Of a DNA stretch of 64,000 nt, positions 9,687-36,110 are shown in pieces. The notes beneath the pieces are model-generated. The model saw nothing but the letters and a program-made list of their open reading frames with translations, was not told where the DNA came from and ran no database searches. The stretch covers positions 48,062-112,061 of the IMG/VR virus record IMGVR_UViG_3300001199_000002. The stretch is one strand, 5' to 3'. Source of the stretch: a virus. Its lineage: Duplodnaviria > Heunggongvirae > Uroviricota > Caudoviricetes. Each line of letters starts with the position of its first letter. Position 1 is the stretch's first letter. The position numbers were made by a program, and so were the translations under genes.

Positions 9687-10751
9687 ATGTTCCACAAGCT
9701 AAGATATCTACTGAAGACAAGTATGCGGTTCTTTCTAGAGCAAGAACTGCTCCGCGATGGCAACTATGACGTAGTAACGTCTGGACTTCAATTCTATGAC
9801 GGCTCTGATATGAGTTTGCTAGTTGCAGATACTGGAGATGAGGTATTGGCTGAGGCTGGCGGACTCGTCGCTGGTCAAGTATGGCAATCTGCATTCAAGA
9901 ACTGGGTCTATGAAGACGTTCCAGCGCTTAATCCTTCAGTGGTCCTAAGAAGATGGCCAACTGCATTCAGAGCAAGTGGTGTCTATATTAACGGTGCCTT
10001 CAGAACGCCAACTGATGCCGTCTATCCACACACAATTGACTACATTAATGGAAGAGTTATCTTTCACTCACCCCTTCCACTCACAACTAGAGTTCATGCG
10101 GACTTTACTTACAAGACAGTAAGTATTCTTGGTTTGCGCGAATTCAATAACCAGCTAAGAGGAGCTACGCTAGAACAACAGTATCTAAACAATCCAAGAA
10201 CTGCTAATCAGTTAGTTTATCCATCTGGAAGTACACGTATCGCTCCACTACCAATCATCTTCATTGAAGACGTTGGCCGTAAGTTTGGAGCATATCAGAT
10301 TGGCGATAGGTCTCTTGTATGCCATGACGAACTAAGCTTTGAGATTTGGACTCTAGATGAAAGCACTAGAGATAATCTTATCGATGTAGTATCGTTTCAG
10401 CAACGTAAGAGCTTCCCAATCATTAACTACAACATTGTGCCACTGCCATTATCTGGCTTGTGGAATACCATTAGCCCGGAGTTTGTGCCATATAGCGGCT
10501 TGGCATTAAATCAACCACTCCCAGGACCACAATTTTCTGGTCTTAACCCAGTCGCTTTCCGTGGCTTTATCGAAGAAACTGAGCTTCAAGACCTAGATTC
10601 GCTATTTAGCGAAAGCGTCACTCAAAGCCCAGTATTCGAAAGAGCTACAATTAAGATGAGAGTAGTTACCTACCCGATTATGCCTACAACCCCGTTCGGG
10701 TTCGATGTGGTCCTTGAGGGCTTTAATGGCTCTGAGGGTAATCCACTTTAG
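9687..10751 (+). CDS. Putative tail terminator/neck protein
   Basis: Directly upstream of the tail tube gene. LPIIFIEDV...FEIWTLDESTRDNLIDVV resembles tail-terminator folds. Confidence 0.45.
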   Translation: MFHKLRYLLKTSMRFFLEQELLRDGNYDVVTSGLQFYDGSDMSLLVADTGDEVLAEAGGLVAGQVWQSAFKNWVYEDVPALNPSVVLRRWPTAFRASGVYINGAFRTPTDAVYPHTIDYINGRVIFHSPLPLTTRVHADFTYKTVSILGLREFNNQLRGATLEQQYLNNPRTANQLVYPSGSTRIAPLPIIFIEDVGRKFGAYQIGDRSLVCHDELSFEIWTLDESTRDNLIDVVSFQQRKSFPIINYNIVPLPLSGLWNTISPEFVPYSGLALNQPLPGPQFSGLNPVAFRGFIEETELQDLDSLFSESVTQSPVFERATIKMRVVTYPIMPTTPFGFDVVLEGFNGSEGNPL

Positions 10752-14716: not shown

Positions 14717-14721
14717 CTTAA

Positions 14722-20700: not shown

Positions 20701-21372
20701 ATTGGTAGAAGCAATGAGATCCTAACTAACGTTCTACCTGATGCATTAAGCGCACGTATCGCCCAGGCGTTCCGTGATGCTCTAAATACCGCCAAGATGA
20801 CCGTTCCAGGGCTAACTGGTCCTGCGGGCGGAACTCCAACTGTGCAAGATCGTGGAACGGAGATGGCTCAAAACCTTCGTCAGGAAGGAAGCAATAAGGC
20901 TCTACAGCAACAAATCGCTAATCAAGCCGGAACCGCTCCTGCCGTAATGGGTAGTGCGTTCGGCAATGTCCAGGGCAAGGACTCTAACCTGCCAGATTCG
21001 ACTGGTCAGGGTGAGGTCAACAAGAACCTAGCTGACATCCTTAGTGAACTAAAGAGTATCAATACACTGACAACAACTAACAACGAAGTTCTAACCGAGA
21101 TCCGTGATACTTCTGGAGAAACCGTAGGAACCGCGTCTGCGACAGTCGGCGGAACCCAGGCAGCACCAGAGATTACCATCAATATCAACGGAGAGAATCG
21201 CGTTACGGTTACTGGCTTCGAGGCTGGTGTTACACGTATCGCAACTTCACTTAGCGAGACCTTTGGTGGCTTTGCAACCGAGGCTGAGGCGCGCGAAATC
21301 GCAAATCAGGTGGTCGAGGCAATCAGAACTGAGCTACAAAGACTAGGCATTCTACAGCGTAACCAACTCTAA
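14722..21372 (+). CDS. Tape measure protein (2216 aa)
   Basis: Very long Ala/Gln/Glu-rich helical protein with a TP901-type core (ASDVQDAFKRSLASLSATGASMEELVAIV...GDVIGTALKTLASRI) and a hydrophobic AxxGxxFGPWG segment. Confidence 0.9.
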   Translation: MAGEDFTIETKLKIAGVIATGNLDAGTLKFKVDTSALKKLVKDAAKAAESVKTKFDNIKLNKIKLEINQASLRQIEAQIRGAIKNAVGKAKIVIDTSLGKGLQGDPFKAQRNAADKSAESLRNMHQLTKDVNQGLRSLMNTLAKFGGMGPAGPVIQANAPGAGLPLPPGAKVVDLSSIQQEIKAKQRLGDFTELLNQKQRDGIKISQAQEAQFSKVERARLQRIQQLQKEIEALGRKEQQLTGGGAFGSGPPGGGGGGFGGGGGGGRGGRGGSGGFSGGGGGASSVQQLASAMSEVEKATNRAGEEMNELERIAFEVGRKAATFRGVAIAINTVVNASQAAIKFVIQYNDSLKELNKVLQVNDSVLQLIGDKLFGLAKSSGFAVDQTVAIATEFARAGLEGRGYGNVIELTEKALLGVQGTSLDTAQATEIIIQTIQQLEGGARGLGKELITTTKLFDILGKAEDITASKASDVQDAFKRSLASLSATGASMEELVAIVSVLQERTQRGGDVIGTALKTLASRIGSSSSEAAVALKSIGVETVDSEGKLRNIFDVLRDTSQAFEGLSEVEQANISVKAAGIRQVEIFRAALLDFNRVQEVATAGALAEGDARRKQKLEQEKLGSAIIRIQGSLQQLVKTASEGALGKLFAGAITAADQALKFISDLDAAAGGFLSTFAGGAILIGGFKALIPIVKGIFKAFQLFVGSTHEANKNIVSFNSGAGMASVTINSKMNPALATTAATMVQLNREMAAYNQAQELAAIRAQRMAKAQEQAVRELGARGVTDPRRIGARTSQILAADDEKRNRARSEAITSVVHQGGAKGLITAAKTAPDQFSDTERKRILALEKVTEQAKGKITAGFTAIGKTFTTLANHPILTSIGFSLLAGGLDMIAEKTGSTTAKVASSAAQFAGLGAMFGPWGIAIGAVGGALGQLFVEMRKGTGTIEELTKKYTQLGLIQTENGQVGVDAAEKIDKAFKNIAALKGFQLSVQQTGAAREKAANTPGAVEIPDFTSIFQEASRALKEQTGVIMDLSDETLGQIGSEANRFVGSRELDAIVAAYAAIAPSKDDAARLQERVNQIIQETADSMPLDELRAERSKVKDKVTEFLNNVNEVLDNARTGMDSSFEDALQSMAAGDFSEGVKKAITDAMQNAAAGSGPQTRQGTTLRTAGVENLVSQARALGNRSNELNQSGGPSKNARVLAQVQKEAPEMLDAAKKLAIAEKNAAARQAQLESQLAAFSSISTEMLTGAVQIGKSLGRPIDQLQLSMREFISGFANEVMRLKEVTVTAATPQREMAAAMKKLAEEDLANALAKTGLEGGDARLKFESEIQKLVSSPEKLLDEGGKALGQEDQRKVIDAVREMATGLNLAVEQIRTQQVTDPRQQREMLEATLPKGNIRNALSKELLDGIVENAKEFGTKMIELDTGVAEKRIKLNQAAVDDLKETLSQQNKELSVNRQRREIIAQNAAAVLEELTGMRQLVTARVLESRQAQANIAEANNRVATLDKMIAAEKAAIASTKDNTAAKNRLIILEEEQTKEAISLEEMLASERIASIKNTLAVAQEAISVGQREADFQKTIMSGRGDLVDLLIVGEKQIDQFNRKLEQNAQTYRVTQASLASEMAIVNATIQDGAEKEARLSEIRKRGAIAAIDAAKAEAQIVAERRAAAQQLIQEGLANQDEQVAAQKAVIDATAALSDAFTTYREAIQGAIMATTQYRLGLRLAEVETTRITGGFSGIKEQLSAVTDAFRSSEKLAREMGSSEKTLVEIRRQSIDAQLSLFNQLLSQQSGLARQFFQSSAEDQASLFQGIQSAKGVADLLGGSFANFQKMGEGAINDLGAQLLSLPQETRQQVVRSLETLGQVGGATVGGFTPDQLLTAIETASLGVSEEGLDVDPLFEVQKRIADLTEQQAFIATEQLIASQQSVEEAKKQVEEAQATKDLAEIQLERIKEEGAEIRAKLAEVNSDLRTVLLQQDANAKNGFNMVTGIIGRSNEILTNVLPDALSARIAQAFRDALNTAKMTVPGLTGPAGGTPTVQDRGTEMAQNLRQEGSNKALQQQIANQAGTAPAVMGSAFGNVQGKDSNLPDSTGQGEVNKNLADILSELKSINTLTTTNNEVLTEIRDTSGETVGTASATVGGTQAAPEITININGENRVTVTGFEAGVTRIATSLSETFGGFATEAEAREIANQVVEAIRTELQRLGILQRNQL

Positions 21373-22859
21373 TGGCTGACCCAAGAAGCACACTACCAGG
21401 ACTGAACCCAACGCACCTAACAGTAAGTTATGGTGGGTCTATCCTCGTACCTTCACCGCTAATTGCACACTCAGTTCAAATTGAACGTGCTGAGTCTGGT
21501 GACCGTGAGCTTATCAGAACTACGAGAACTCTGACTGGTCAGATTCTGACATCAGGTATCGGCTATCACTACGTTCGTCAAAAGCAACGCGAACTAGAAG
21601 ATGCATTCTCGCTGGACGGTCTAGAATTCAAGATCATTGCAGCGGCAAATCACCCATGTTTGGTTCCAGGGACGCCAATTGAAAGTGGTATCTTTCCAAA
21701 CGTTACATCGATTGAGATTAGAGAAGACACTCAATTCAATCGTCTAGACTATACAATTGTTCTAGAGGATGAGACCGCACCAAGTGGAGTTTCTGGTCTT
21801 GTTCAGAGTCTAAGCAATACATGGACATACGCAGAGAACGATGATGAAGTAGTCATCGACATCACTCATAGCGTTAGTGCCCAAGGTATCAATACTGCTG
21901 TCTCTGGATTGCCATCAAATGCAACTACGAACGCAGTAGCGCGAGTTCGTCAACTACTTGGACTGGCAAATGCACCATCTGGCTTCCCATATTATGCTCA
22001 ACCAGCAAGCGGAAGTAGTGTTCGCTTTTATGAGGTAACAACCTCTCGCGAAGAAAGCATCAATACAGAGGATGCAACATATAACGTAACAGAAAGTTTC
22101 AAGCTTGTTTCTGGTCTGCTACCTTTTAGAGATGAGAGAACTTCTCAATGGCAGCGTGACTCGGAGGGCATTACAACTGTAAGCTTGCAGGGAACCGTTC
22201 GTGGATTCGGAAGAACTAACGATGGTTCAGATGAAGGTAGTAGTCGCTCAAGTGGTGGTACTGGCTTTATCAATGCACTAAGTGGATTCAATAACCTAGT
22301 TCGTCCAGCTTGGACAACCGATGCGTTGTTGGTCTATGGGCGTTATACAGGCTCTGGATCACTAGCTGTCAACAATCCGCAGTCGATCTCGATCACTCAG
22401 AATCCTGGCAATGCCTCAATCGCCTACTCTGTAACCTATACAGACGATGCATCTGAGAACTTACCAAGCGGCATTACAGATATGTCTGTCACGGTTCAGC
22501 GCACCGATCCAGTGGTTGCAAACGCAATCATTGCGGTGCCATTCCGCGCTCTAGGCCCTGTTTTCCAGCGCTTGTGTACAACGACAGAGGGAACATACAC
22601 GATTCAGTGTAACGTAACAGCAACCAACACCGGAAATGAAGTTGTTAACACCAACCGCGCTCTTGAGGTTGCTGAATACGAGATGATTCGTCTACAGCCA
22701 AATCCAGCCGATTACACAGCGCTAAGACTTACTGGTCGCCAGCAGACTATCGATCGAATTAATCGTAGCGTTCAAGTATCGTTTACATGGACGTTTGCAC
22801 AGGACATTGCAACTGTCCCAAGTGACACGGCACCAGTTTCACTAGGACGTATCTCATGA
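21372..22859 (+). CDS. Tail tip/distal tail protein
   Basis: TAATG overlap directly after the tape measure; beta-rich and S/T/G-rich. Confidence 0.5.
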   Translation: MADPRSTLPGLNPTHLTVSYGGSILVPSPLIAHSVQIERAESGDRELIRTTRTLTGQILTSGIGYHYVRQKQRELEDAFSLDGLEFKIIAAANHPCLVPGTPIESGIFPNVTSIEIREDTQFNRLDYTIVLEDETAPSGVSGLVQSLSNTWTYAENDDEVVIDITHSVSAQGINTAVSGLPSNATTNAVARVRQLLGLANAPSGFPYYAQPASGSSVRFYEVTTSREESINTEDATYNVTESFKLVSGLLPFRDERTSQWQRDSEGITTVSLQGTVRGFGRTNDGSDEGSSRSSGGTGFINALSGFNNLVRPAWTTDALLVYGRYTGSGSLAVNNPQSISITQNPGNASIAYSVTYTDDASENLPSGITDMSVTVQRTDPVVANAIIAVPFRALGPVFQRLCTTTEGTYTIQCNVTATNTGNEVVNTNRALEVAEYEMIRLQPNPADYTALRLTGRQQTIDRINRSVQVSFTWTFAQDIATVPSDTAPVSLGRIS

Positions 22860-23383
22860 TCCTACCAACAGTACAATTCATCCAGTTCAACAAGGACGTA
22901 AATCCGTCTGGCTACCGTCACATCGCAGCCAGCGGCATTAAGACCCTTGATACTAGCATCACTGGATGCCTTGAATTTGGCAATGTGAACACTACGACAT
23001 CTGGTCGTATTAGCGATACTAAGATGGCAATTTTCAGAGTCTCAAACTTTGGAAGCGCCTCTGGTGTGTTCAATATGAGGTTCTTCCTCATCAATACGAA
23101 TGCGTTTAATCTTGGTAACTATCGATTCCTAAATCGCATCTCAACACACTGGCAGGGTAATGGCTTTACGCTAAGTCTTGCCGATGCGGATCTTCCTACA
23201 TCAGTTCCAGTTCAGAACGTTCTTTCTACAAGCGGACAACCTGTTCTAAGTGGATTGTTTGATGGCCATGTAAGCCAATACATCTACCTAGCAACCTATG
23301 TTGATACTGACGTGCCTTTCGGTACCTATGGTGGTGCAACAAATGGAACGTTCAGATACCGCATGCTGTATGATTTCTCATAG
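22856..23383 (+). CDS. Minor tail protein (paralog of 23387-23977)
   Basis: ATGA overlap; C-terminus VSQYIYLATYVDTDVPFGTYGG...YDFS. Confidence 0.6.
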   Translation: MILPTVQFIQFNKDVNPSGYRHIAASGIKTLDTSITGCLEFGNVNTTTSGRISDTKMAIFRVSNFGSASGVFNMRFFLINTNAFNLGNYRFLNRISTHWQGNGFTLSLADADLPTSVPVQNVLSTSGQPVLSGLFDGHVSQYIYLATYVDTDVPFGTYGGATNGTFRYRMLYDFS

Positions 23384-23386
23384 CCA

Positions 23387-23977
23387 ATGCCACTCACAGT
23401 CCCAGTCCCGACAATTAGATTCTCTAGTTGGAATAACTCTGAACTAGCAGATCCAGCAGGCACGAGACATCTTGTTTCGGGCGCATTTGCGTATGACAAG
23501 GAACTTGGTCTTGGATGCTCAAACGCTATGTCGTTCAGCAATCTTGTCTTAAGTCTTGCTAATGACGATCCCTATGTTGGATCTAGTGTGGCGGTAGTTA
23601 ACGTATCAGTGCCGAACTTTGGAACACTACAAGCTTCTGGGCTAAATGCCGTCTACAACTTTAGATTGTGGATTCCATCAGGATCTGGAACAGCAATCAA
23701 TCTACCGGGCGCAAGTCTTCAATTCATTACAAGTGGTGTATGGATACCAAACCTAACGTTTCCAAGTGGCTTTGGTCAGACATTCCTTACAACACTGCCT
23801 ACGCAATTTAACCTTAGACGAATCGATGGCAGGTCAGAGCTTGTAAGCTTTAACGATGCCAACGTGAGTGAATGGATCTATATGCGTCTCTTCCTGGACA
23901 GAGATTTTCCAGTAGGAACATATGGTGCCTGTGGGAGTGGATCGCTTAGACCTAGACTCACATTTGATTTCTACTGA
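23387..23977 (+). CDS. Minor tail protein (paralog of 22856-23383)
   Basis: C-terminus VSEWIYMRLFLDRDFPVGTYGA...FDFY. Confidence 0.6.
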   Translation: MPLTVPVPTIRFSSWNNSELADPAGTRHLVSGAFAYDKELGLGCSNAMSFSNLVLSLANDDPYVGSSVAVVNVSVPNFGTLQASGLNAVYNFRLWIPSGSGTAINLPGASLQFITSGVWIPNLTFPSGFGQTFLTTLPTQFNLRRIDGRSELVSFNDANVSEWIYMRLFLDRDFPVGTYGACGSGSLRPRLTFDFY

Positions 23978-23991
23978 TACACCTCGTCTGG

Positions 23992-24004
23992 TTTAGTGTA
24001 TAAC
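23992..24004 (+). promoter_or_regulatory. Candidate late promoter TTTAGTGTATAAC (copy 3)
   Basis: Intergenic, upstream of the 61-aa gene. Confidence 0.65.
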
Positions 24005-24052
24005 TAAACATGGGTTTCCCAGTTCAGAACTAGTTCTTAGGAGGACAATAAC

Positions 24053-24238
24053 ATGGCAACAATTAATGCTGCTGTAAGCAACAACCGTGTCAACCGTATG
24101 CGCATGTCAAAGAGCCGTACACTTTTGCTCTATAGCGATCGTGTAACTGCGACAGATGCATTCGTCGGTGTTGCGCAGTTCGTATCTCGTACTTCGGTAA
24201 CGGAGTTCAAGAGCACGAACCCATTCACGATTGCGTAA
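24053..24238 (+). CDS. 61-aa basic protein in its own transcription unit
   Basis: Strong RBS AGGAGG, own promoter motif and terminator, codon usage like the capsid gene. Confidence 0.75.
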   Translation: MATINAAVSNNRVNRMRMSKSRTLLLYSDRVTATDAFVGVAQFVSRTSVTEFKSTNPFTIA

Positions 24239-24265
24239 GCGGTCTGAGTGGAGAATGGATCTCAT

Positions 24266-24297
24266 ACGGCTACTCCTCACGGGGTAGCCGTCTTTTT
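24266..24297 (+). terminator. Rho-independent terminator
   Basis: ACGGCTACTCC-TCAC-GGGGTAGCCGT followed by CTTTTT. Confidence 0.85.
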
Positions 24298-24312
24298 GGA
24301 TAGGTGGGTAGG

Positions 24313-24831
24313 ATGAAGAGTTGGCTGCTAGATGCAACTATGGAATTAGTGCATTCTCATGATGAGAGTGATACTAGTATCTACACTGTGATCCTGAAGT
24401 TTAAGGATCTATTCGGCAATGACCGAAAGCATTTTGCCACAGCAGAACTTCCGAAATCTCAAGTCCTTCAGACAAGGGTATCGTTTACGGCAATGTCAAG
24501 CATCAGCGCAAGACTAGCATTGGTTGAAGCTGTCATGGATGGAAAAGTCCGTGTCATGTTTTCCGATCGTACCGTAGATGCTTTGAATCCTTACAATTTT
24601 CAAATCAAACGTGGACAACTAGTACATCTAGTAGAACATCTAGATATCGTAGCAAACGAGGGAACACTATGTGATGTTGTAGTCCCACACAACATTCCAT
24701 TCTCACCAGAAGCTCTTTGTCTTCAGTCTGTGAACGCTGATCTATTGGATGACGCAGGTAATCTTCTCTATCGTCTAAGTGCTGATTCTCTCCCAGGAGG
24801 ATGTTTCGGCGCACGAGTGATCAATCAATGA
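24313..24831 (+). CDS. Hypothetical protein
   Basis: 172-aa ORF, ATGA-coupled to the next gene. Confidence 0.65.
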   Translation: MKSWLLDATMELVHSHDESDTSIYTVILKFKDLFGNDRKHFATAELPKSQVLQTRVSFTAMSSISARLALVEAVMDGKVRVMFSDRTVDALNPYNFQIKRGQLVHLVEHLDIVANEGTLCDVVVPHNIPFSPEALCLQSVNADLLDDAGNLLYRLSADSLPGGCFGARVINQ

Positions 24832-27800
24832 CAAGAGAATGGCAACCAAACGGCAGCAACTATGACTACTGGCGCAGTGACAATCCACTGATCCAGGGTT
24901 GGTGGCGTTTCGGCGGTGTTAATCCAAAGAACAACTTCCAGACTCCAGAAGAGAAGAGTGCGACTAACTACCTCTCTGGTTTGCTAGTTGACTCTGGTCC
25001 ACAAAAGCATCACCTTAAGCCATACTTCTTCGGAACACAGCCAGCCGACTCACAGGTTTTGGTTCCTGTTGCAAGTATTGCACCTTGGGATCCAACCGGA
25101 AGCGGTCTTCAGTTTAGATGGCTTAACACAGCAGACAATAAGATGTTGTTTGTTGATCCATCTACCGTATTAGAGCAAAACTCATCCACTCATGGTACGT
25201 TTGGTCACGGCGCACCAATGTATTCTGGTTTTACTGCTATTGCTTGGCTAAAGCTTACAGAGAAAATACCAGAGAATCTTGGAGAGCAATTTATCTTTGG
25301 TAAGTCAGATCAAGATAACGGCGGTGGTGCTGCTGGTGTTTGTTGGCGTATGACATGGCAGCAAAATACTGGTGACTATGCGCTAAACTTTACTTGGCTT
25401 AGTGCTGCAAACTATATCTTTCCACCAGGAGCTACTCAGGTAGCATCAACAAGACTTACTAGTAGTCTTGCAAAATTTCCATCTGCTGGTAACGTAACAG
25501 TAATTCAATCTCCTAATTTTCCCAAAGATAGAACACAGGCATTTTTTGTTGCATGTCAATTTCGTAGAGAGAATGTAGAGACGAACAGATCGTTTACCAA
25601 TAACGGTAGTGGTATTCTTACGGTCTATATTGGCACGGCAGCCAGTGGTATCATACAAACCAATACTCAGTTTGTACGCGGAAGTGATATTTCTAACATC
25701 TTCAGATCGCCAACACTAGCTGGAAGACCAATTACCATTGGTTCTGAGGGCCATCCAAGAACAAATAGCACAGCTAGCAATAGACATCTTGCTAGTGGTT
25801 CTATTATTGACGAATTCGTATACGTGTCCGATGGCTATCTATCTAATGATCGTATTGCATATTATGCATTGAGCGGTATTCGAAATATCGAAACATCAAA
25901 TCCAGAATCTAGTGGATTCGTACCACAGTTTCCTGCTGACGATGGACTAGTAGCATATTGGAGCTTCGATGAAAATGATGGTGCCAATACCGCCCCAGCT
26001 ACAGCAAATGATCCAAGACTATATCTCTCACTAAGCGGTGTAACAACTTTCGTAGATGGTATTCGTGAAGGTCGCGCTGTAAGAGTAACAAGTAGCAATA
26101 CAGTAAGTAACACATCTGATGGTGGAACGCTACTAGCTTCTAATAGCTATCCAGCAATTCCTCCACAAAGTGGTTTGTCACTTCTTTTCCCAAGTGGACA
26201 AAGTATAGACGAAGGCATGACCATCATTGGATGGATGCGATCTGTTCCTACTGGAAGTAACCTTGGTGGCGGCGGCTTTGGATGGCTTGGTACTGCTGGA
26301 AGACACAACGCATTCTTCGCAGAGAGCATCACAGGAACCGTAACATCTAATAGAAACGTTTTGTCAGTGCAGGCTCACGTAAGTGGTGCTGGTTTTTCCC
26401 CACTTCCAAACTCACGAATGACTAGCTATGCCTCAACTGCATCTGCTAACGATCGTCCTGGGTCAGCACTTGGTTTGACTAACGCATCTACTATTGTAGA
26501 ACAAGAATTTGATCGCGGCGATGATGGTTGGCACCTATGGGCTGGTGTGTATGACCTAAAGGCTGGTCAGATGTATATGGTGCGCGACGCTAAACATCTA
26601 ATCCAGATGACCCAGCAGATTCCTTCAGCGTCTGGATGGTCTTCTACTGGTCTAGGAATGAATGGTGGTTTCTTTGGATTCTTCAATGTTACCAGCACTC
26701 GATCAGTAGAGTTCGATGACTTTGCAGTCTATAATCGTATTCTAACTATTCCAGAAATGTCTGGATATGGCCTGCAAGGAATCTTGAGTGATGCGCCAGA
26801 TCCATTCATGTCTACTCCAATGAAGTCTCTAGTTGGTTACTGGCCAATGGATGAGATTGTCAACTATGATCCAACTGGTGTGTCTGGATATCGAATTGAT
26901 GACCATAGTTGGTATCGCCACCATCTAACAAATCTAAGTGGCACATTTTCAACTAGCACTCGCCTCAATACAGAACAGGCAGAATTCACATCTTCACTCC
27001 AGATTGGCCTAAGTGGTTCAATGGTTTCTCTTGAGAGGGTATTCACAGGATCGAATCTAGATGGTTCGAATTCAGACACCTTCTCATTGAGTGGTATATC
27101 TTTCGGAACGTGGCTCTATCTACCATCTGGAGACCTAGGAACTCTAGGTCAGGGAAGTAGCGGACTATATGGAGATCATATGGTTATGGGCTCTTGGTCT
27201 CAAGAGCTTGCAGAGCGCTCTTGGTTCCTCGGTATTAGAGACAATAAACCACACATCAAGATCGTTACGGATTCATTGTCAGAACTTGAATACACAGGTA
27301 ATGATACTGTGCCATTCAATACTCCATTCTTTCTTGGAGCTAATATTGGACCGTCTGGATTGACTCTTCGTGCTCAGGTTGTAATTGCTGAAATTGCAGA
27401 AATTGACGCAGTAAGATATACAATTGATGAAGTATTTGGTTTGGACTCAACCGTATTGAATCCATGTGGCGCAAGTGGTATTAGCTTCCTAAATGCACCA
27501 AATCTAAACTATGGATTCCCACAGACAACTAGAATTGGTATCGCATTTGTCCATATCGGAACGCAAAATGCTGGTCAGTGGATCGCAACCAAGCGTTCTG
27601 GTGCAGATGATATTGTTCTAGGAAGTGGTGCAGTATCAACATCAGATCCAGCGAATATCTCATTGTGGCATCTAGATACTCAACTTCAGCCGCTGCATGA
27701 CTTTGGTAGAGAACAAAACAGACTAACTCTCATCAACCTAGATGCACACGGAGTTGGACTCTCTAGAGCGATTCATACTAGCGGTGTTATCATTCGTCAA

Positions 27801-29420
27801 CCAGAGTATCTTGATACACTTGCTAGCAATCCAGGATCTAGAAGACTAGACCTTGGCTCTGGAACTCAATCATGGACACTCTTGGGTTGGGTAAGACCAA
27901 ACGAGACTCCTTCAAATACCGATCGCCACGTTATCATGAATAAGGGTGGTGGTGATGATGATACTGGTTCTGGTATTCAGGTCTATACACCAGCAGATGC
28001 GCTAACCTTAGTTTCACACGCTAAGGACGCGGATGTTGCTAGTCAAAACGGTGACCTAATTCCAGGTGCATGGAACCACATTGCAGTTGTGTTCGATCGC
28101 GATAACAATCAGTTTACAAACGTTATCAATGGTCGCTATGCTGGTTTGACGCAAAAAACACTAGTTGAAACACCACCAAACAACTCAGGATTCATTCTCG
28201 GTGGTCGTGGCGACCAAGAGAGTAATGCACTTGCGGGCGGCAGTGCTTTCTCTGGTATCCTAGATGACTTCATGATCTTTGCTAGAGCGCTAACACTACC
28301 AGAGATTTCAGGTCTTGCAGCAAACTCGTACAACTATGCAGAATCACCAAACGATCCAGTAACTGGATACTTCGGTGGCTATCTAAGTGGTCTAGAGCAA
28401 CAATTGGTATCTGGCCTAATAGGTTCATTCTTGCACGGTCAAGCTCAAGACTTGGCGTTGTTCGGCGGTTATCTCAGTGGTGTGTCTGGTCATATGGACC
28501 ATATTGGTGGATTCATTCACGGAATGGGTCAGGTAAGTGGCTTGTTCGGTGGCTATCTACACGGTCTTGGTCAAGTAAGCGGACTATTTGGTGGCTTCTT
28601 GCACGGCATGAATATCGCAAGCGGAATCATAGGCTCATACCTAATTGGCGCTGGCGAAGCTCTATCCGAGTTCGATATCACCTTCAATTTCCAGATTGTT
28701 GCCGCCAGAGATTTCGATAGCCGACTAGAAGTTCTAAAGAGTGCTCATCATAACTTCGACGCTATGCTTGGTGTCGTAAGAATCACACAACCACCAGAAT
28801 GCGCGCTACAACTACCTCTTGTTGGTCTAGTTGCATCTGGCGTACCATATACTCTAACAGTATCTGGAAGTGGATGGGCATACGAAGATAAGAGTCTATC
28901 GAAGGTAAGATTTACGTTCGCCGACTTCAAGGGCGCTGAGAGTGGTATCCATATTGGCGGACTGCCTAATAGCGGTCTATACATGGCGACCAGAACATTC
29001 GACACTCCAGGTTGGTATACAATTAAGATGGAATTGACAGACAGCTACGGTTATCGCCATAGTTGTGTTCGTCCATTCTTGCTTGTTCCATCAGGATCTA
29101 CGTCTGGTGCGTATCTAGCAACACTACCAGGAGTCGCATTCTCTGCAACTCCAACTACAGGAAGCACTATCCAAAGGGTGCTCTTCACCTATGGATTGTC
29201 GGGTTTGGCAACTACAAGTGGATTCCTAGAATACACCGACTTTGCCGATCAGCAAGAGAGTTTATTGAATGGACTGGAAATGCCATCAGGCACACAATTC
29301 GTGAGCTTCGTGCGCGAGCATGATTACACGATGCCTGGACAGTACCGCCCAGTGTGGGCTGTCAGCGGCTCATGGGGAGTGGTTTCTGATTCAATCTCTG
29401 CTGGTATCGACTACACATGA
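24828..29420 (+). CDS. Large tail/virion protein with about four LamG/concanavalin-like domains and a C-terminal PKD/Ig-like region
   Basis: Domain starts LIQGWWRF, LVAYWSFDE, LVGYWPMDE, ISLWHLD. Domain ends FDDFAVYNRILT and LDDFMIFARALT; also WNHIAVVFDR. C-terminal HDYTMPGQYRP. Confidence 0.8.
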   Translation: MTREWQPNGSNYDYWRSDNPLIQGWWRFGGVNPKNNFQTPEEKSATNYLSGLLVDSGPQKHHLKPYFFGTQPADSQVLVPVASIAPWDPTGSGLQFRWLNTADNKMLFVDPSTVLEQNSSTHGTFGHGAPMYSGFTAIAWLKLTEKIPENLGEQFIFGKSDQDNGGGAAGVCWRMTWQQNTGDYALNFTWLSAANYIFPPGATQVASTRLTSSLAKFPSAGNVTVIQSPNFPKDRTQAFFVACQFRRENVETNRSFTNNGSGILTVYIGTAASGIIQTNTQFVRGSDISNIFRSPTLAGRPITIGSEGHPRTNSTASNRHLASGSIIDEFVYVSDGYLSNDRIAYYALSGIRNIETSNPESSGFVPQFPADDGLVAYWSFDENDGANTAPATANDPRLYLSLSGVTTFVDGIREGRAVRVTSSNTVSNTSDGGTLLASNSYPAIPPQSGLSLLFPSGQSIDEGMTIIGWMRSVPTGSNLGGGGFGWLGTAGRHNAFFAESITGTVTSNRNVLSVQAHVSGAGFSPLPNSRMTSYASTASANDRPGSALGLTNASTIVEQEFDRGDDGWHLWAGVYDLKAGQMYMVRDAKHLIQMTQQIPSASGWSSTGLGMNGGFFGFFNVTSTRSVEFDDFAVYNRILTIPEMSGYGLQGILSDAPDPFMSTPMKSLVGYWPMDEIVNYDPTGVSGYRIDDHSWYRHHLTNLSGTFSTSTRLNTEQAEFTSSLQIGLSGSMVSLERVFTGSNLDGSNSDTFSLSGISFGTWLYLPSGDLGTLGQGSSGLYGDHMVMGSWSQELAERSWFLGIRDNKPHIKIVTDSLSELEYTGNDTVPFNTPFFLGANIGPSGLTLRAQVVIAEIAEIDAVRYTIDEVFGLDSTVLNPCGASGISFLNAPNLNYGFPQTTRIGIAFVHIGTQNAGQWIATKRSGADDIVLGSGAVSTSDPANISLWHLDTQLQPLHDFGREQNRLTLINLDAHGVGLSRAIHTSGVIIRQPEYLDTLASNPGSRRLDLGSGTQSWTLLGWVRPNETPSNTDRHVIMNKGGGDDDTGSGIQVYTPADALTLVSHAKDADVASQNGDLIPGAWNHIAVVFDRDNNQFTNVINGRYAGLTQKTLVETPPNNSGFILGGRGDQESNALAGGSAFSGILDDFMIFARALTLPEISGLAANSYNYAESPNDPVTGYFGGYLSGLEQQLVSGLIGSFLHGQAQDLALFGGYLSGVSGHMDHIGGFIHGMGQVSGLFGGYLHGLGQVSGLFGGFLHGMNIASGIIGSYLIGAGEALSEFDITFNFQIVAARDFDSRLEVLKSAHHNFDAMLGVVRITQPPECALQLPLVGLVASGVPYTLTVSGSGWAYEDKSLSKVRFTFADFKGAESGIHIGGLPNSGLYMATRTFDTPGWYTIKMELTDSYGYRHSCVRPFLLVPSGSTSGAYLATLPGVAFSATPTTGSTIQRVLFTYGLSGLATTSGFLEYTDFADQQESLLNGLEMPSGTQFVSFVREHDYTMPGQYRPVWAVSGSWGVVSDSISAGIDYT
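28364..28650 (+). repeat. Seven degenerate ~14-aa repeats, consensus SGxFGGYLxG
   Basis: GYFGGYLSG, GLIGSFLHG, LFGGYLSG, HIGGFIHG, GLFGGYLHG, GLFGGFLHG, GIIGSYLIG. Confidence 0.8.
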
Positions 29421-31582
29421 CGGGTTTTGAATATCTACCTAGACCATATCCATATGGAAGAGAACCATTCCTTGTTGCTTCTGGCGAGAAGGTGGGGTTT
29501 GAGGCTCGTTTCTTTTCAATTCCTGCCTTCGCGGCTCAGGCGGATCGGCGGCTGTTTACAGTATCAGCGAGCCATCCAGTTGCTAACGTTTTCAAACTAT
29601 ACGTCAACCGTAGCTCAAACACAACCATCTCACTAGAGCCTACGATTAGTGCTAGTGGATATGAAAGAGGAACGCCACACTACGCAGATGTCATTCTAGA
29701 CATTCGCGATACATTAGCACTAGCTTGGGCTAAGCACGCAGAAGATAGTGACCACACTGCGCAAGATTTCAAAGTCGCACATCTAGAAAGACAGCGTGAA
29801 CCGTACAACATGCTGTCCTCATCAAGGCCCGATGTAATTCCAGGTGACTACACTCATAAAGAGTCAGTTACTCTTACCCCATCAGGTAATGAGCTAGGTG
29901 CTATTGGACTACAAGATATAGATATCGATGAAGTTCAGTGGCAACCATTCACTAGACCAAAAAAGATCGCAACTCTTACTGGCATGCCATTCGAGCCATG
30001 CTTTCCTGCTGTTCTAAAGACAGACGGTTCGCTGCCAGACTTTTCTTCACTTGACGAAGAAAGATTCGGTCAATTGGGACTAGGAGGAGCGGCTTCTGGT
30101 GGCCTAGTAATCACTGGAGATAAACTACTTGACGGAACTACAATAAAGCTACTTACTGGCTCTGGTGCAACAATCACAAGTGAGGGTAGTTTCAACCAAC
30201 TAGTTCCATGGGCTCTTTATCCTGCTCAAAACAAGCTGAATCTCTACTATACAACAGAGAACTCTGGCGTCATCACTGCGTCAGGACGACAAGCTGTTTA
30301 CAACATACCATCTACAGTAGATGAGGGCGTGCTATTACTAAATGTTGCAGATGCAGGAACAAGTGGACGACTAATTCAGAACTGGCCAGGAAACTATCAT
30401 GCGACTAGTGGAGTTGGTGCAACTGGAAAAGCGCACAATGGAGTTCACGTAGCAGATAGTCTAATCTACAACCTGTATGAAGGTAACGCTGGCAATCTCA
30501 TCTTTGGTAGAAGCAAAATCAATGGTAAAAAGGTATTTGGACACTTCGTTGGAACAGAGGTAAATTCTAAGGGCATTTCTTGGGGTGGGTCACAAAAACA
30601 CAGTAATGGAAATACGGTTTATGGATGGGGTGGTGTCATCAATCCAAACCTTGGTGGATTCGCACAATCATCAGTTTCTTGGTTCACAACCGACAATACA
30701 TTTTCGCCAATCAACTGGACAGTTCGCAATACAAGTGTTTGGCAGCCCCGCACTGGTCTCTTTGGAGCACCATCAAGCACGACATGGACGCTAGGTGACA
30801 TTCAGTCGTCATCAAACAGAACCATCACGTATAAAGCCTATGCGCAGTGGGGCTATATGGATCGTGTCATCACGCCAGATGACGACTTTGCATCACTTGG
30901 TGTAAAAAAACAAGATGTCATTAGTTACGAAACGCATGTCTATAGAGAGGGAACAGATCCGGCAACTGGATCTTTTGCGTGGGTAGAACTACCACCGCCA
31001 GAATCTCCATATTTTAGTACACAGACACTAAACTACTATGAGAATACGTTCCAATGCAATAACTTCATTTCATTGTTCTTTCTAAGAAAGTTGAATCATG
31101 GAATGATACATGTGAATGGACAGATTGGATATCAATGGAGCGAACCTGGATCTTTTGGTCCAGTTCCTAAGCCAACACATAATAGGTTTTCGTTTTTTGG
31201 CAATACCTCTACTACGTTGACACCAGCAACAGCGTATTCTTCATCTACATACGTGGTTGGATTTTTTCCATCGTGGAGTATCCGATTGTCAGTGACAACC
31301 AATAATCAAGTAACTGTTCCAAATCAGATTCAGATTGATGGAACTTTTAGTGCCATCTCGTTTGCTCCAGATGTGCCTATGACAACATCTGTTGTAGATA
31401 CTTTTGGACCAGCAGTCTGGGATCCTAATGATGGTGTAAACTACCTATACTTTTCGACGATACACTCTCCACAAAGAGTCTATTTTGCCAAAATGAATAC
31501 GTCTTTTGTCATTACCCATATAAACCAAGTAGACTCTACGGACGCTATACTAAGTGGTCGTCCTGCTATCCTAAGCATTTAG
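29417..31582 (+). CDS. Tail tip/structural protein (beta-rich)
   Basis: ATGA overlap, 721 aa, aromatic/S/T/G-rich, within the tail module. Confidence 0.55.
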   Translation: MTGFEYLPRPYPYGREPFLVASGEKVGFEARFFSIPAFAAQADRRLFTVSASHPVANVFKLYVNRSSNTTISLEPTISASGYERGTPHYADVILDIRDTLALAWAKHAEDSDHTAQDFKVAHLERQREPYNMLSSSRPDVIPGDYTHKESVTLTPSGNELGAIGLQDIDIDEVQWQPFTRPKKIATLTGMPFEPCFPAVLKTDGSLPDFSSLDEERFGQLGLGGAASGGLVITGDKLLDGTTIKLLTGSGATITSEGSFNQLVPWALYPAQNKLNLYYTTENSGVITASGRQAVYNIPSTVDEGVLLLNVADAGTSGRLIQNWPGNYHATSGVGATGKAHNGVHVADSLIYNLYEGNAGNLIFGRSKINGKKVFGHFVGTEVNSKGISWGGSQKHSNGNTVYGWGGVINPNLGGFAQSSVSWFTTDNTFSPINWTVRNTSVWQPRTGLFGAPSSTTWTLGDIQSSSNRTITYKAYAQWGYMDRVITPDDDFASLGVKKQDVISYETHVYREGTDPATGSFAWVELPPPESPYFSTQTLNYYENTFQCNNFISLFFLRKLNHGMIHVNGQIGYQWSEPGSFGPVPKPTHNRFSFFGNTSTTLTPATAYSSSTYVVGFFPSWSIRLSVTTNNQVTVPNQIQIDGTFSAISFAPDVPMTTSVVDTFGPAVWDPNDGVNYLYFSTIHSPQRVYFAKMNTSFVITHINQVDSTDAILSGRPAILSI

Positions 31583-31590
31583 TGTATACT
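31578..31590 (+). promoter_or_regulatory. Candidate late promoter TTTAGTGTATACT (copy 4)
   Basis: Its TAG is the stop of 29417-31582; upstream of RBS AAGGAG and GTG 31622. Confidence 0.55.
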
Positions 31591-31621
31591 ACAACTAGAC
31601 TAGTCATCTAAGGAGCGGATT

Positions 31622-32278
31622 GTGAACACTTTAACCTTCATTGCGCCATCGGGTGCTCCCGCCAGCGGGACCATCATCGAGCAACTAACGATTCCGGGTA
31701 ACACCAGCGGAGCAAACTTTCTAGGTTTCTTCGGCACTGGTGGTCCTCAGGGTGCTCCATTTGCAGTCATTATTGACCGCTATCAAGACAAGACGTTCAT
31801 TACTAACATGAGCGGTACTAATCTTGGTGTAGCCCCGTGGGGACTCCGAGCCAGTGGTCAACTCATTAACAACAAATACGTGACCTCTAATACGGTTAAC
31901 GTTAATGGCCAAGGCGCTGTTGCGATCAGTACGGTTCCAATCGCCTCTGGCACTCTTCTGATTCGTTTCGTACCTTCTGGATCTATTTCTGTAGTGACAC
32001 AGAATGCTGCTCTACGAGCAGTTGTTCTAAACTCAACTAGCGGTGTTAACGATGTAACATCAGTTGTCACTGGTATGAAAATTCAGGGATTTGAACCAAT
32101 CAACGATGCAACGTGGACACAAATGGCTGGTGCTGGTGCGATTGATAATCAGCTACAGTTTAATGACCACAATACATCAAGTAATCGGCACGACTTCTTT
32201 GCGTGCCTGTCAGCATCACCAGAGGCAACTGGTCAGAGAAACAACTTTGGTTTCTTTATGATCATTGAGTTCCTCTAA
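31622..32278 (+). CDS. Structural (tail) protein, SG-rich
   Basis: RBS AAGGAG, GTG start, beta-rich S/G/T composition. Confidence 0.6.
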   Translation: MNTLTFIAPSGAPASGTIIEQLTIPGNTSGANFLGFFGTGGPQGAPFAVIIDRYQDKTFITNMSGTNLGVAPWGLRASGQLINNKYVTSNTVNVNGQGAVAISTVPIASGTLLIRFVPSGSISVVTQNAALRAVVLNSTSGVNDVTSVVTGMKIQGFEPINDATWTQMAGAGAIDNQLQFNDHNTSSNRHDFFACLSASPEATGQRNNFGFFMIIEFL

Positions 32279-32289
32279 AAGGATAGGGT

Positions 32290-32751
32290 ATGAATACGAA
32301 GGATGTCGCAAGGGACTCCTACCATCTCGCTACGAGATTGGAGGAGTGCCCATTCAATAGTTTTTGGGTTGTTCTTCTAGATGATGGCACGGAAGTATAT
32401 CAATCAGACGATAGGGCTGATCTTCCAGAGGCTAGTCCATGGATGCGCCTCAAAAGATTATGCTTAGAACATGGACGTAAAATCTGTCACATGGCATACG
32501 CATATCGTGATGGAAGTGGCGAACAGATCAATTGTGTACCAGACTCAGCAGGTTACTTCTTTGCAAAAAGAATTCGAAAACTTGGAGCGCTAGATCCTAA
32601 CGTTTGTGGATATACCGATCATGCCATTGGTGTGGGCTATCTTAGACATAACATTCTAACTATCAAGTGGCTAAGAGATGATGGCGTAATAGAACATGAA
32701 GATAGAAATATGTCAGATCGAGAATTACCACTCACACTAATCAGTAATTGA
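32290..32751 (+). CDS. Hypothetical protein
   Basis: 153-aa ORF with RBS AAGGA. Confidence 0.7.
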   Translation: MNTKDVARDSYHLATRLEECPFNSFWVVLLDDGTEVYQSDDRADLPEASPWMRLKRLCLEHGRKICHMAYAYRDGSGEQINCVPDSAGYFFAKRIRKLGALDPNVCGYTDHAIGVGYLRHNILTIKWLRDDGVIEHEDRNMSDRELPLTLISN

Positions 32752-35700
32752 TGCCAAACTTCAATCTTAACGGAAGCGCAATTGATGTAGCAGGGCTCGG
32801 TCTAGGTGACTGTCGCCCCGTTATCACGTTTCCATCAGGATTGATTCCAGCAGGACAGCCTGGACGTGATCTAGAAGCCGCACTGATTCAGATCAATGCC
32901 ACCTTCGGATTTAATACGACGCCACATGGATTTGCTACGACGTGGGTTCCAACACGAGACGATCCAAAGGCATTTCACGGCGCTAGTGGTCAAGCACCAA
33001 GCGTAGGTCGCATTATCGGATTCACCGTAGGTGAATTCTTGGTTAGCGGCGAGATTACCCACTCAGAATATAGCGTAGATGCTAACGGTGGTACAATTCT
33101 CAACGTGAACATCAGCGATACGCGGCGTTGTATCGATAGAATTCGCATCATCACAGAAGACCTTGGTCCAGTCAATCCAGGCTCTGGTGCGATCTCTGTT
33201 GCAAGAGCAATCCGTATCATTGACGGTTTCCAAGACCTAAATGGTCAGGTTTCGGAAGAGAAGTTCAAAGAGTATCGCAAGATTCTAGAGCAAGGTGCCA
33301 CATACCCTCAAATTGTACGAGCTATTCAACTAGCTATCGATCAGGGCGAAATTCGGTTTGACATCAATACGATTCCAACCGTAGCAATGCTTGAGGCAAA
33401 CCTTGGAGGAACTGCATCTGCAATTCGTTTCCAGTTTGATGCTACGCCACTTAGCGAAGTAATCACTCGTGTGCTAGAGGCTACTGCATACGATTGGTAT
33501 TGGAGCATGTCTGATCAGGCAATCAAGCTCATCAATCGTCGGGTTCCATTTGCCTTGCGTGAGAGTGATCTTCTAAACATTGTGTCAGAACTTGGTGCTG
33601 TAAGCGGACTAGATAACACTATCAGACTAGCATATGGCGACGACCTAATCAATCAGCCACGTAGAGTTCGTCTACTTGGTGCCCACCAAGAGGGATGGAT
33701 CAATTCGCCACTACTTGCTCCTCTAGATGGTCTGGATACACCAGCTTCAGGTATTGTATTCCAACCAGCATGGACAAACTTCTCTGTTCAGTTTACAGAT
33801 TCTGTTGGTGTTCTGCGTTCATATAAGCCCGGTGATCTTGAACTCAAGGCTGCTCTTAAGGGTATTGAGCATTGGACATACTTCAAGAAGTATCAATCAG
33901 CGCCACTGAACCTTAGCTTGACATCGCCAGGATTCGGATTAGCGCCTGATATTGGTAGCATTGCCGCACAGCATCCAGACTTCCAGAGTCGTATTGATCC
34001 AGCAATGCCGTTGGCAAATCTTGGTGGTAACGAGTCTGGTTCGCTCCGTCTCATTAACAATAGAAGAGATGCTGCCCAAAATTGGGTGCTAAACTTCTAC
34101 AATAGGGTAAGAGATCACGCAACTCGCTTCTATGGAAAAGCGTATATCGCTTCAGGAATCCTCGTAAACTCTGCGTCGGGCGCATTCAAACTAGCGACAT
34201 CTGCCTGGGGTAACGTAGAGAATCAAATTGAAGGCCAGCCGCTAAGTGTCACAGGATCTAGCGGTCAATTCATCAATGACTACGAGATCAATAGAGACCT
34301 GGGTCCACTAGCTCCATTTAAGGGAACTGACGATAAGATTTCTGCTTACGTCGTTCTGCCTTCTGGCACGGTCTATGGTTCGGAGGGTGACGAATCGCCA
34401 GCAGGATTTAGCCAATGGACAGAAGACTACAATATCGGTAATACTCCAGCTACTTCTGGTCGTCGTTGGCGAACGGGTGAACACTATCTACCAGTGACAC
34501 TTACTGAAGTTGGCCAACTTACGATCGATCCTCGTGATCCTCTACGCGCATTCGAAGAGTATCCAGAGGGAACGCTACTAGCCGAACTGCCAATCATTGC
34601 AGGATCTGGTTTATCATCAGACTTCATTTTCCGCAATCTAGTAACACTAGCCGAACAAGCACTAGACTCAACAAGTTCAGGTCTGGTTGATGTTGTTGAT
34701 CCAAGTCTTCTAATTGCGCCTTACCTAAGGCTATCTGGCGTGGCGATCCCAATCTTGTCACCAACAAGATACGGCATGTCGTTCCCATCTACTTGGGTAA
34801 GTGGATCGCTACTAACTGATTGTGATTCTGAGTCAATCGTGATTGACGATCAGTTTGGTCCATGGAATTTTCCACCACAAGGAACCACAACATCGCTTCG
34901 TCTTATGGAAGACAGAGCCATGCGTCGTCTACAGGGTCTGATTGCGCCAGCGGCAACATCTACGTTTGCTCAAGTAGAAGTAGTTGGTATGCCAACCATC
35001 TCGTTTGACGGCTTCTCTAACAACGAACCAGATGCAAGTGGTAGAATTGGTATCAGAAACCATGGCATTACTGATATCAATTTCAGCTTGGGATCAAATG
35101 GTATCAGATGCAACTATCGTGTTGCAAGCTTCTTTGCTAAGTTCGGTGAGGAGGTTCCACTTGGTGAGCGCCAAAGAGCTATTCTAAACGGCATCATCAA
35201 TCCCATCGATACTGATGTCCTGCAACTTACGCCAGGAACAAGAACACCCTCACGTCCAACTCCACCACAACCGATCCTGACTGGAGCATCAAGCCGTGGA
35301 GAGGTTACGCGCAAGGTGACGATCACGACAGTAAATAACGCCTTGACGTTTACCAATACTCCAAATGAAGGAACTCAAGAACGCTATCGTGGATTGAGCG
35401 ATCAAGACTACAATTGCCCACCAATTCGTCCAGGCAGCAACGATCCAGACTTTGAAGGAACTGGTGGGGCTATCTGCGTAGACGGATTCTTGAACATTGG
35501 CGATGAAGCGATCTATCACGTAAACGAATTCAAACTTGAAAATGGTCGTAGAGAGATTGCGCGTTTCTTTACTGGTGGTCGTGCGTTTGCCAATGGCACA
35601 GTAGTTTTCGTAAGTGGTATTGGCTCAGCAAGCAATGTTTACGACGTTGCAATTGCTAACACTGATCCTGTTCGTCGTCTAGCTGACGTTCCACTACTTA

Positions 35701-36110
35701 ACGGAGCGGTAAATATCGGAGAGCTAACGACTCTTGCTTCGGAGGCTGGTGAATCAACCCCACGTACGCTAGGCCGCGCTGGTGCCTCACTTGCGCTTGA
35801 GGGTATCTACCTGAATCCAGGTGGTAGCGTTACAGTTCCAGTACAAGTTGTTTCGATCACCAACCCTGGCACGTCTGGTGCCATTGTGGCAGTGCGCGAA
35901 CTTAATAGTCGTGGTGACGTTAATACTGCGGCAACTCTTATCACTGGTCTGCGTCCTATTCCTAATCCAGAATTTGTGATCGTAGGTGATAAAGGCGCAT
36001 ATTTCTCATCGGCAGTTTTGAACACAAGTCCATCGACACCGGGAGATGGATCTGAGATCACTGGTAACTTCTTCTTGAGCAACCGACAGAACTTCTTGAA
36101 GTTTACGTAG
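32748..36110 (+). CDS. Large tail tip/hub-like protein
   Basis: 1120 aa, last gene of the tail module; hub-like N-terminus (EVITRVLEATAYDWYW). Function inferred. Confidence 0.5.
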   Translation: MMPNFNLNGSAIDVAGLGLGDCRPVITFPSGLIPAGQPGRDLEAALIQINATFGFNTTPHGFATTWVPTRDDPKAFHGASGQAPSVGRIIGFTVGEFLVSGEITHSEYSVDANGGTILNVNISDTRRCIDRIRIITEDLGPVNPGSGAISVARAIRIIDGFQDLNGQVSEEKFKEYRKILEQGATYPQIVRAIQLAIDQGEIRFDINTIPTVAMLEANLGGTASAIRFQFDATPLSEVITRVLEATAYDWYWSMSDQAIKLINRRVPFALRESDLLNIVSELGAVSGLDNTIRLAYGDDLINQPRRVRLLGAHQEGWINSPLLAPLDGLDTPASGIVFQPAWTNFSVQFTDSVGVLRSYKPGDLELKAALKGIEHWTYFKKYQSAPLNLSLTSPGFGLAPDIGSIAAQHPDFQSRIDPAMPLANLGGNESGSLRLINNRRDAAQNWVLNFYNRVRDHATRFYGKAYIASGILVNSASGAFKLATSAWGNVENQIEGQPLSVTGSSGQFINDYEINRDLGPLAPFKGTDDKISAYVVLPSGTVYGSEGDESPAGFSQWTEDYNIGNTPATSGRRWRTGEHYLPVTLTEVGQLTIDPRDPLRAFEEYPEGTLLAELPIIAGSGLSSDFIFRNLVTLAEQALDSTSSGLVDVVDPSLLIAPYLRLSGVAIPILSPTRYGMSFPSTWVSGSLLTDCDSESIVIDDQFGPWNFPPQGTTTSLRLMEDRAMRRLQGLIAPAATSTFAQVEVVGMPTISFDGFSNNEPDASGRIGIRNHGITDINFSLGSNGIRCNYRVASFFAKFGEEVPLGERQRAILNGIINPIDTDVLQLTPGTRTPSRPTPPQPILTGASSRGEVTRKVTITTVNNALTFTNTPNEGTQERYRGLSDQDYNCPPIRPGSNDPDFEGTGGAICVDGFLNIGDEAIYHVNEFKLENGRREIARFFTGGRAFANGTVVFVSGIGSASNVYDVAIANTDPVRRLADVPLLNGAVNIGELTTLASEAGESTPRTLGRAGASLALEGIYLNPGGSVTVPVQVVSITNPGTSGAIVAVRELNSRGDVNTAATLITGLRPIPNPEFVIVGDKGAYFSSAVLNTSPSTPGDGSEITGNFFLSNRQNFLKFT

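Follow-up and report, generated by a model that had tools for sequence, protein, structure and literature searches.

Serine-glycine pairs in the tail proteins of a 176-kb phage, a candidate acceptor motif for virion glycosylation

Described glycosylation systems and the phage locus

The nearest working analogy for the locus described here is the TibC/AAH system, in which serine, not threonine, is hyperglycosylated in the cytoplasm, with one mapped site reading N-S-G-G-A-V-I (PMC4358343). The locus is the tail block at 21.4-36.1 kb of a 64,000-nucleotide stretch of DNA (the window) that covers bases 48062-112061 of the 176,061-bp Caudoviricetes record IMGVR_UViG_3300001199_000002, and its proteins carry an excess of the dipeptide Ser-Gly (SG) that may mark acceptor sites for glycosyltransferases (GTs) encoded in the same window. 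TibC and AAH are soluble enzymes of the GT-B type, and the proteins on which they act, TibA and AIDA-I, are beta-rich fibrous surface proteins whose sites are short loops before strands. In the phage, similarly, Thr-Gly (TG) is not enriched, the SG pairs precede hydrophobic strands and soluble GTs are encoded. The phage differs in that its GTs belong to the Glycos_transf_1/GT4, Glycos_transf_2 and Glyco_trans_1_2 families and not to the heptosyltransferases (Glyco_transf_9-like), and in that the candidate acceptors are many unrelated tail proteins and not one beta-helix. The phage system would therefore be said, by analogy, to work like TibC/AAH and not to belong to that family.

The nearest biological precedent is provided by mycobacteriophages Che8, Corndog and Myrna, which are reported (Freeman et al. 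2023) to O-glycosylate their virions with phage-encoded GTs, the acceptors reportedly being Ser/Thr-rich C-terminal extensions of the capsid and tail tube subunits. Here too, phage-encoded GTs would decorate virion proteins inside the infected cell, but the SG motif is dispersed within folded tail proteins, its enrichment is centred on baseplate and fibre proteins, and the GT cluster is far larger. The chlorovirus PBCV-1 reportedly uses virus-encoded soluble GTs and rare-sugar pathways to glycosylate its capsid without a lipid carrier, the glycans being N-linked at atypical sequons. The phage is likewise a large virus with many soluble GTs and rare-sugar pathways, whose target would be a structural protein of its own, although O-linked glycans on tails would apply here and PBCV-1 is a eukaryotic virus with an N-linked capsid glycan.

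Two further comparisons concern the dipeptide. Animal xylosyltransferase and EOGT require Gly immediately after the acceptor Ser (Ser/Thr), and xylosyltransferase also needs acidic flanks. The phage sites share the Gly at +1, so an S-G sequon is enzymatically reasonable, but the enzyme families are unrelated, the compartments are different and no acidic flanks are present; the analogy with proteoglycan xylosylation drawn in a first-pass annotation of the window fails on this last point, since charged residues are depleted around the sites. Glycine-ending tight beta-turns and G1 bulges are general elements of protein structure. The SG sites share with them a location at strand borders, an invariant Gly and a partial exchange with Asn-Gly (NG) and Asp-Gly (DG), and differ in a preference for Ser that is found in none of eight control tail sets. 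As the first-pass annotation had supposed, no SG sequon in phages was found in literature searches; the papers on Douge, on Claus/Corndog and on marine proteomics concern glycan binding or other modifications.

Size, specificity and conservation of the Ser-Gly excess

The SG excess is confirmed and is unusual. Expected counts were computed from the composition of each protein, and the ratio of observed to expected counts (O/E) was used throughout. The seven tail-block proteins together hold 112 SG pairs compared with 43.1 expected (O/E 2.60, z 10.5), and the second-best z among the 400 dipeptides in these proteins is 3.0. All seven genes are on the plus strand. The first (21372..22859), directly 3' of the tape measure gene, encodes a hub or distal-tail-like protein of 495 amino acids (aa) with 13 SG pairs (3.8 expected, z 5.1), and is followed by the genes of a 175-aa protein (22856..23383; 6 SG, 1.5 expected) and a 196-aa protein (23387..23977; 7 SG, 2.0 expected). 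The largest product, of 1539 aa (24801..29420), has a Laminin_G_3 (ConA-like) domain at residues 1022-1170 and 49 SG pairs distributed over its full length, compared with 18.8 expected and with 24 pairs in the reverse order, Gly-Ser (GS). The remaining three are a 721-aa protein (29417..31582; 10 SG, 6.2 expected), a 218-aa beta-sandwich protein (31622..32278; 8 SG, 2.0 expected) and an 1120-aa protein (32748..36110; 19 SG, 8.8 expected, z 3.8). Shuffling of each protein gave z values of 3.7-8.2 in six of the seven, the 721-aa protein being the weakest member at 1.7. In that protein, 9 of the 10 SG pairs fall within residues 1-331 and none within residues 332-712, as if the SG-free C-terminal half were a module of other origin or role. 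Regular spacing of the SG sites is significant in the 495-aa protein only.

The hand counts on which the first-pass annotation was built proved exact for all seven proteins (including the 24 GS), for the tail tube candidate (8 in 460 aa) and for the two proteins chosen as contrasts. These are the 2216-aa tape measure protein (14722..21372, plus strand), an internal control with 12 SG pairs compared with 12.6 expected (O/E 0.95), and DnaE, with 5 SG in 1146 aa (O/E 1.08). The remainder of the 176-kb genome has an SG O/E of 1.16. RecA (36606) reached an SG z of 3.1, but this rests on four sites and was taken as chance.

Amino-acid composition, repeats or a bias at the DNA level might have produced the excess artificially, as Ser (9.4%) and Gly (10.2%) are abundant in the tail proteins and the 1539-aa protein contains a short repeat run at residues 1190-1280. 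The expected counts, however, are already corrected for the composition of each protein, and the other pairs in the tail proteins have O/E values of 1.28 (GS), 0.79 (NG), 0.93 (DG), 0.89 (TG), 0.94 (Pro-Gly, PG), 0.68 (Gly-Gly, GG) and 0.69 (Ser-Ser, SS); because GS, SS, GG, NG, DG and TG are not enriched, the excess is neither low complexity nor a generic X-Gly turn signal. Hexamers that encode SG are confined to the reading frame (113 in frame, 5 and 22 in the other two frames), and 16 different codon pairs encode the tail SG sites, which places the selection at the protein level. A DNA-level or compositional origin was rejected on these dipeptide statistics, in-frame hexamers and codon pairs. 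Paralogy was rejected as the source of the excess as well, since the only related proteins among the seven are the 175-aa and 196-aa products (28% identity) and, weakly, the 721-aa and 218-aa products. The bias extends over no fewer than six tail proteins that have no homology to one another, together with a tail-spike-like protein and its neighbour described below, and in the 1539-aa protein the sites occur well beyond the repeat run. An artefact of any of these kinds is barely credible. Within SG pairs the Ser codon TCA is rarer than elsewhere (0.11 vs 0.29) and TCT and AGT are over-used; this shift could reflect codon-pair preferences ahead of GGN.

The serines of the SG pairs are conserved as serines. 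Comparison of the 218-aa protein with 99 homologues (50-94% identity) shows one of its eight SG sites retained in 59% of the sequences and the other seven in 91-100%; conservation is 96% for the SG serines and 46% for other serines, replacement of Ser by Thr being almost absent. When all tail proteins were compared with their IMG/VR relatives, the SG serine was kept at 0.89 (other serines 0.50) at 55% identity or more, and at 0.67 (other serines 0.36) at 35-55% identity. This level equals that of Trp and Pro, and the Gly of the pair is kept at 0.97. Among the conserved sites both Ser codon families, TCN and AGY, are represented, with switches from one to the other. The alignments indicate that these serines are under strong Ser-specific purifying selection. 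At 25-36% identity about one third of the SG positions persist, new sites arise and the density stays high; the SG O/E of the hub family falls with distance (2.57, 2.11, 1.75), and related tail blocks have values of 1.5-2.45.

The record that holds these genes is a complete phage genome with direct terminal repeats. Genes in the window are ordered as portal, capsid, tape measure, tail block, DnaB/DnaE/RecA, a sigma-factor gene and the GT cluster. Apart from the single Laminin_G_3 domain, no Pfam or PHROG family was detected in the tail-block proteins, and no cultured relatives of the tail block or of the hub protein were found in the phage collection; the matches of DnaE and of the tape measure protein are remote. 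Further virion genes on the plus strand of the window encode a putative tail tube protein of 460 aa (10823..12205; 8 SG, 3.6 expected, z 2.5), assigned by position alone and with no family match, a 354-aa virion-module protein (9687..10751; 6 SG, 1.8 expected) and a 152-aa head-module protein (3922..4380; 4 SG, 0.9 expected). The major capsid protein, with 2 SG and 1.4 expected, shows no enrichment. Outside the window, on the minus strand, SG-rich proteins are encoded at genome positions 131964-134231 and 134751-135218. The first is a 755-aa product with an endosialidase tail-spike Pfam match (19 SG, 8.7 expected) and the second its 155-aa neighbour (8 SG, 1.9 expected), both about 50 kb from the tail block.

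Sequence context, structure and comparison with other phage tails

Over 158 sites the sequence context reads P (-3), A (-2), A/P/V (-1), S, G, L/I, I/F, I. At position -1, A, P and V are enriched 1.8-2.7 times, and L, I and F are enriched about twofold at the two residues after the Gly, in agreement with the A/V/L/P/T-S-G-hydrophobic context that had been noted by eye. The charged fraction is 0.04-0.09 from -3 to +3 compared with a background of 0.15, and Asp stands at -1 in only 1 of the 158 sites. For the 218-aa protein the model is a beta-sandwich (pLDDT 75), to which no fold in the PDB was matched. The AF2 model of the 495-aa protein (pLDDT 79) has tandem tail-tube-like domains, and its Foldseek matches are the Mu baseplate, SPP1 Dit and the lambda tube (probability 0.8-1.0, no PDB match at E <= 0.001); on this model it is taken to be a hub or distal tail protein. 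In the secondary-structure strings of the two models, 16 of the 21 SG serines are in coil, where about 10 would be expected, most often in a hairpin or 1-3 residues ahead of a strand; in the hub model, 9 of the 13 are in coil. In the Laminin_G_3 domain, two of the three SG sites have the Ser immediately ahead of a fold-conserved Gly, and PDB homologues have K/G/Q or H/V in place of that Ser; the fold thus does not impose Ser, which is a choice of the lineage.

Eight sets of tail, baseplate and fibre proteins (28,751 residues when pooled) served as controls. Their SG O/E values are 1.17 for the T4 baseplate and tail (with gp23), 0.96 for the T4 long tail fibres, 1.18 for T5, 0.89 for SPP1 (with tape measure and capsid), 1.58 for lambda (with tape measure, capsid and portal), 1.37 for Basilisk, 1.27 for S-CBS4 and 1.68 for Mae-JY09, and the excess of 2.60 in the present phage, set against this range of 0.9-1.7, is above that of generic beta-rich tail proteins; equality with these had been named in the first-pass annotation as a refuting outcome. 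In the pooled controls the three turn-forming pairs are mildly and equally enriched (SG 1.23, NG 1.28, DG 1.28), whereas in this phage SG alone is raised and NG and DG are lowered. A generic beta-turn enrichment was rejected, because NG, DG, PG and TG are not enriched and the controls show no preference for SG.

A more specific structural explanation is that SG is a turn motif of this lineage, used for tight turns or beta-bulges at strand entries with no modification, where it would replace the NG and DG of other phages, perhaps because these deamidate or isomerise in long-lived virions. Several observations agree with it, and most of them also weigh against glycosylation. The modelled serines lie mostly in coil at strand borders, and their flanks are hydrophobic and depleted of charge, as at strand edges. 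At close range both Ser and Gly are near-invariant, as in structural turns, the Gly being 97% conserved. SG partly substitutes for NG and DG turns: NG and DG are below the control level of 1.28 here, they fall to 0.65-0.73 and 0.56-0.70 in far SG-rich lineages, and across 130 hub homologues SG is anticorrelated with NG+DG (rho -0.27, p 0.0017). The hub, largely buried in the baseplate, is enriched as much as the fibres. This also limits the contrast between exposed and internal proteins made in the first-pass annotation: the tape measure protein is indeed at expectation, but the contrast is confounded with that between beta-rich and helical proteins, and the equally enriched hub is not peripheral.

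The same comparisons hold points against the lineage-specific turn. Turn physics is universal, yet none of the eight control sets prefers SG. The NG and DG deficit of about 23 sites covers under half of the roughly 59 surplus SG sites, and NG, DG and SG combined are at 1.63 here compared with 1.26 in the controls. The Ser is rarely replaced by Thr, Asn or Asp, and in the Laminin_G_3 domain it occupies a position, just before a fold-conserved Gly, at which K, H, V or Q is tolerated in homologues. The aquatic cyanophage S-CBS4 retains NG at 1.37 and DG at 1.31. A purely structural, lineage-specific turn is regarded as the main rival to glycosylation, possible but somewhat doubtful.

One far lineage, a 208-kb record (95% complete) found through the hub family alone, has tail values of 2.02 (SG), 0.65 (NG) and 0.70 (DG). 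The hub clade low in SG is intermediate (O/E 1.31 in L045 and 1.82 in L043), and a sugar epimerase is encoded near the L045 hub. L045 also encodes, at 12353-21428, a 3061-aa tape measure protein with an ADP-ribosylating toxin-like Pfam match (PF03496). L040 (1-8280) and L041, which represent a far lineage whose tape measure protein has 3474 aa, show raised SG and lowered NG and DG in some tail proteins only (28 SG, 10.1 expected, and 20 SG, 6.9 expected), the other tail proteins being at or below expectation. The cyanosiphoviruses S-CBS4 (a Synechococcus phage) and Mae-JY09 (a Microcystis phage) have single tail proteins strongly enriched in SG, at 30632-31039 and 36207-37016 in the former and at 20757-21413 in the latter (8 SG vs 2.0 expected, 9 vs 3.0 and 9 vs 2.8, respectively), within tail blocks that as a whole are close to normal, and in both a GT4 gene stands in the head module beside the capsid genes.

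The glycosyltransferase cluster and the proposed acceptor motif

The GT cluster at 49-64 kb of the window, to which the SG sites had been linked in the first-pass annotation, consists of real and soluble GT families. Pfam and NCBIfam scans of the window identified six GT-family genes, all on the plus strand. The first gene of the cluster encodes a long GT4 of 627 aa with no transmembrane segment (48986..50869), and it is followed by a GT4 (387 aa), a GT2 (359 aa) and a GT2 (268 aa) starting at 50866, 51983 and 53288 (50866..54094), and by a Glyco_trans_1_2-like (GT1-like) GT (319 aa) at 57899 and a GT2 (247 aa) at 58828 (57899..59571). No 19-residue window reaches a hydrophobicity of 1.6 in any of the GTs, the maximum being 1.26. 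Downstream, on the same strand, a DegT-type sugar aminotransferase, a methyltransferase and a formyltransferase (59917..62449) would provide rare amino-sugar tailoring. A gene for a sigma-70 region-2 protein (48372-49001) lies directly upstream of the first GT gene and overlaps it, a placement that suggests transcriptional control of the glycan cluster by its own factor.

The complete genome gave no Bac_transf, Glycos_transf_4/WecA-type or Wzy_C/PglL-type match, with control genomes detected, and no ThyA-like hydroxymethylase (Thymidylat_synt match); the phage therefore encodes neither a lipid-carrier route nor the classical route to hydroxymethylcytosine or hydroxymethyluracil (hmC/hmU) DNA. 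Judged by gene content, the lipid-carrier route is not phage-encoded, and host enzymes could still supply it. The simplest reading of the cluster would be sequential transfer of sugars onto a cytoplasmic acceptor. Of 10 related records, 9 contain GT families, and the single miss ends just before the expected cluster. Each of the five distant relatives tested has a homologue of the 627-aa GT4 with 34-48% identity, a higher conservation than that of the 218-aa protein (26-36%), the most conserved of the tail proteins tested. In distant relatives the GTs adjoin the tail block, and the far 208-kb lineage has a 651-aa homologue of the long GT4 (27% identity) beside its tail genes. The long GT4 belongs to virus-specific GT4 clusters; with regard to its acceptor specificity, a PDB sequence search, NCBIfam and Atlas gave generic GT4 kinship only. 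The long-GT4 homologue of one relative (L034, G003:C1:96227-97936) has one in-frame TAG within the match.

The link between the SG sites and the GTs has its own difficulties, which add to the structural points above. Lambda reaches an SG O/E of 1.5-1.6 without any GT, and S-CBS4 and Mae-JY09 have a weak homologue of the long GT4, yet their overall SG values are as low as given for the controls. The co-occurrence of SG and GTs across the clade is one phylogenetic event. No GT-free relative was found, the low-SG hub homologues (P0147, P0156, P0134, P0203 and P0183) being on short contigs, and IMG/VR searches with P0147 and P0203 gave no matches.

A role of the serines in something other than a GT-made glycan was also considered, namely phosphorylation, acylation, phosphoglycosylation or recognition by an assembly factor. 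Ser-specific conservation and lineage specificity demand a factor that reads Ser without naming it, and a trypsin-like protease gene lies near the gene of the SG-rich tail-spike-like protein. The scans made, however, linked no kinase, acyltransferase or other candidate enzyme to the tail module, and apart from the GT cluster no large modification module shared by the clade was seen. Such a role is considered improbable.

The explanation preferred here, tentatively and as one that may well be wrong, is that the SG pairs are a Ser-specific acceptor motif for cytoplasmic glycosylation of the virion that works like TibC/AAH. The pairs would mark short loops leading into beta-strands of the tail, baseplate and fibre proteins, with the consensus Pro/Ala, Ala, Ala/Pro/Val, Ser, Gly, Leu/Ile, Ile/Phe. 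The serine hydroxyl would be the acceptor for the soluble GTs of the phage, which would be the reason that the lineage selects only Ser before these glycines. Late in infection, in the cytoplasm, an initiating enzyme, for which the clade-universal long GT4 at 48986 is the best candidate, would add the first sugar to Ser, and the Gly at +1 might supply the backbone freedom or the missing side chain required by the active site. The remaining GTs would then lengthen the chain with rare sugars from the adjoining pathways, and the tail would become decorated with glycan.

The claim that the SG sites are acceptors for the GT cluster is thus upheld in part. The GTs are soluble and occur in nine of ten related records, selection is Ser-specific and the sites are mostly in loops, whereas the hydrophobic flanks and the partial replacement of NG and DG count on the other side, and the causal link is putative. 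What is shown is a specific and conserved bias, confined to virion proteins, together with soluble GTs found across the clade; these fit, and do not prove, acceptor sites for phage GTs. We infer the attachment of sugar, the initiating GT and the role of the glycan, and the glycosylation interpretation is plausible after having survived several tests. A broader form of it would make Ser-Gly before a hydrophobic strand a Ser-specific sequon read by the virus-specific long GT4 and giving a multi-sugar tail coat in many large uncultured aquatic phages, a general and undescribed code across lineages that share little else; this extension is thought rather unlikely.

Should the SG pairs prove purely structural, the conservation of one dipeptide to the degree of tryptophan, in unrelated tail proteins of an entire lineage, would still be an unexplained rule of tail architecture. 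If the glycosylation interpretation is true, SG would be the first defined acceptor motif of phage virion glycosylation, phages coated with glycan would become predictable by sequence alone, and the large and otherwise orphan GT clusters of aquatic phages would have a target, with a bearing on host recognition, on particle stability and on escape from grazing or adsorption traps.

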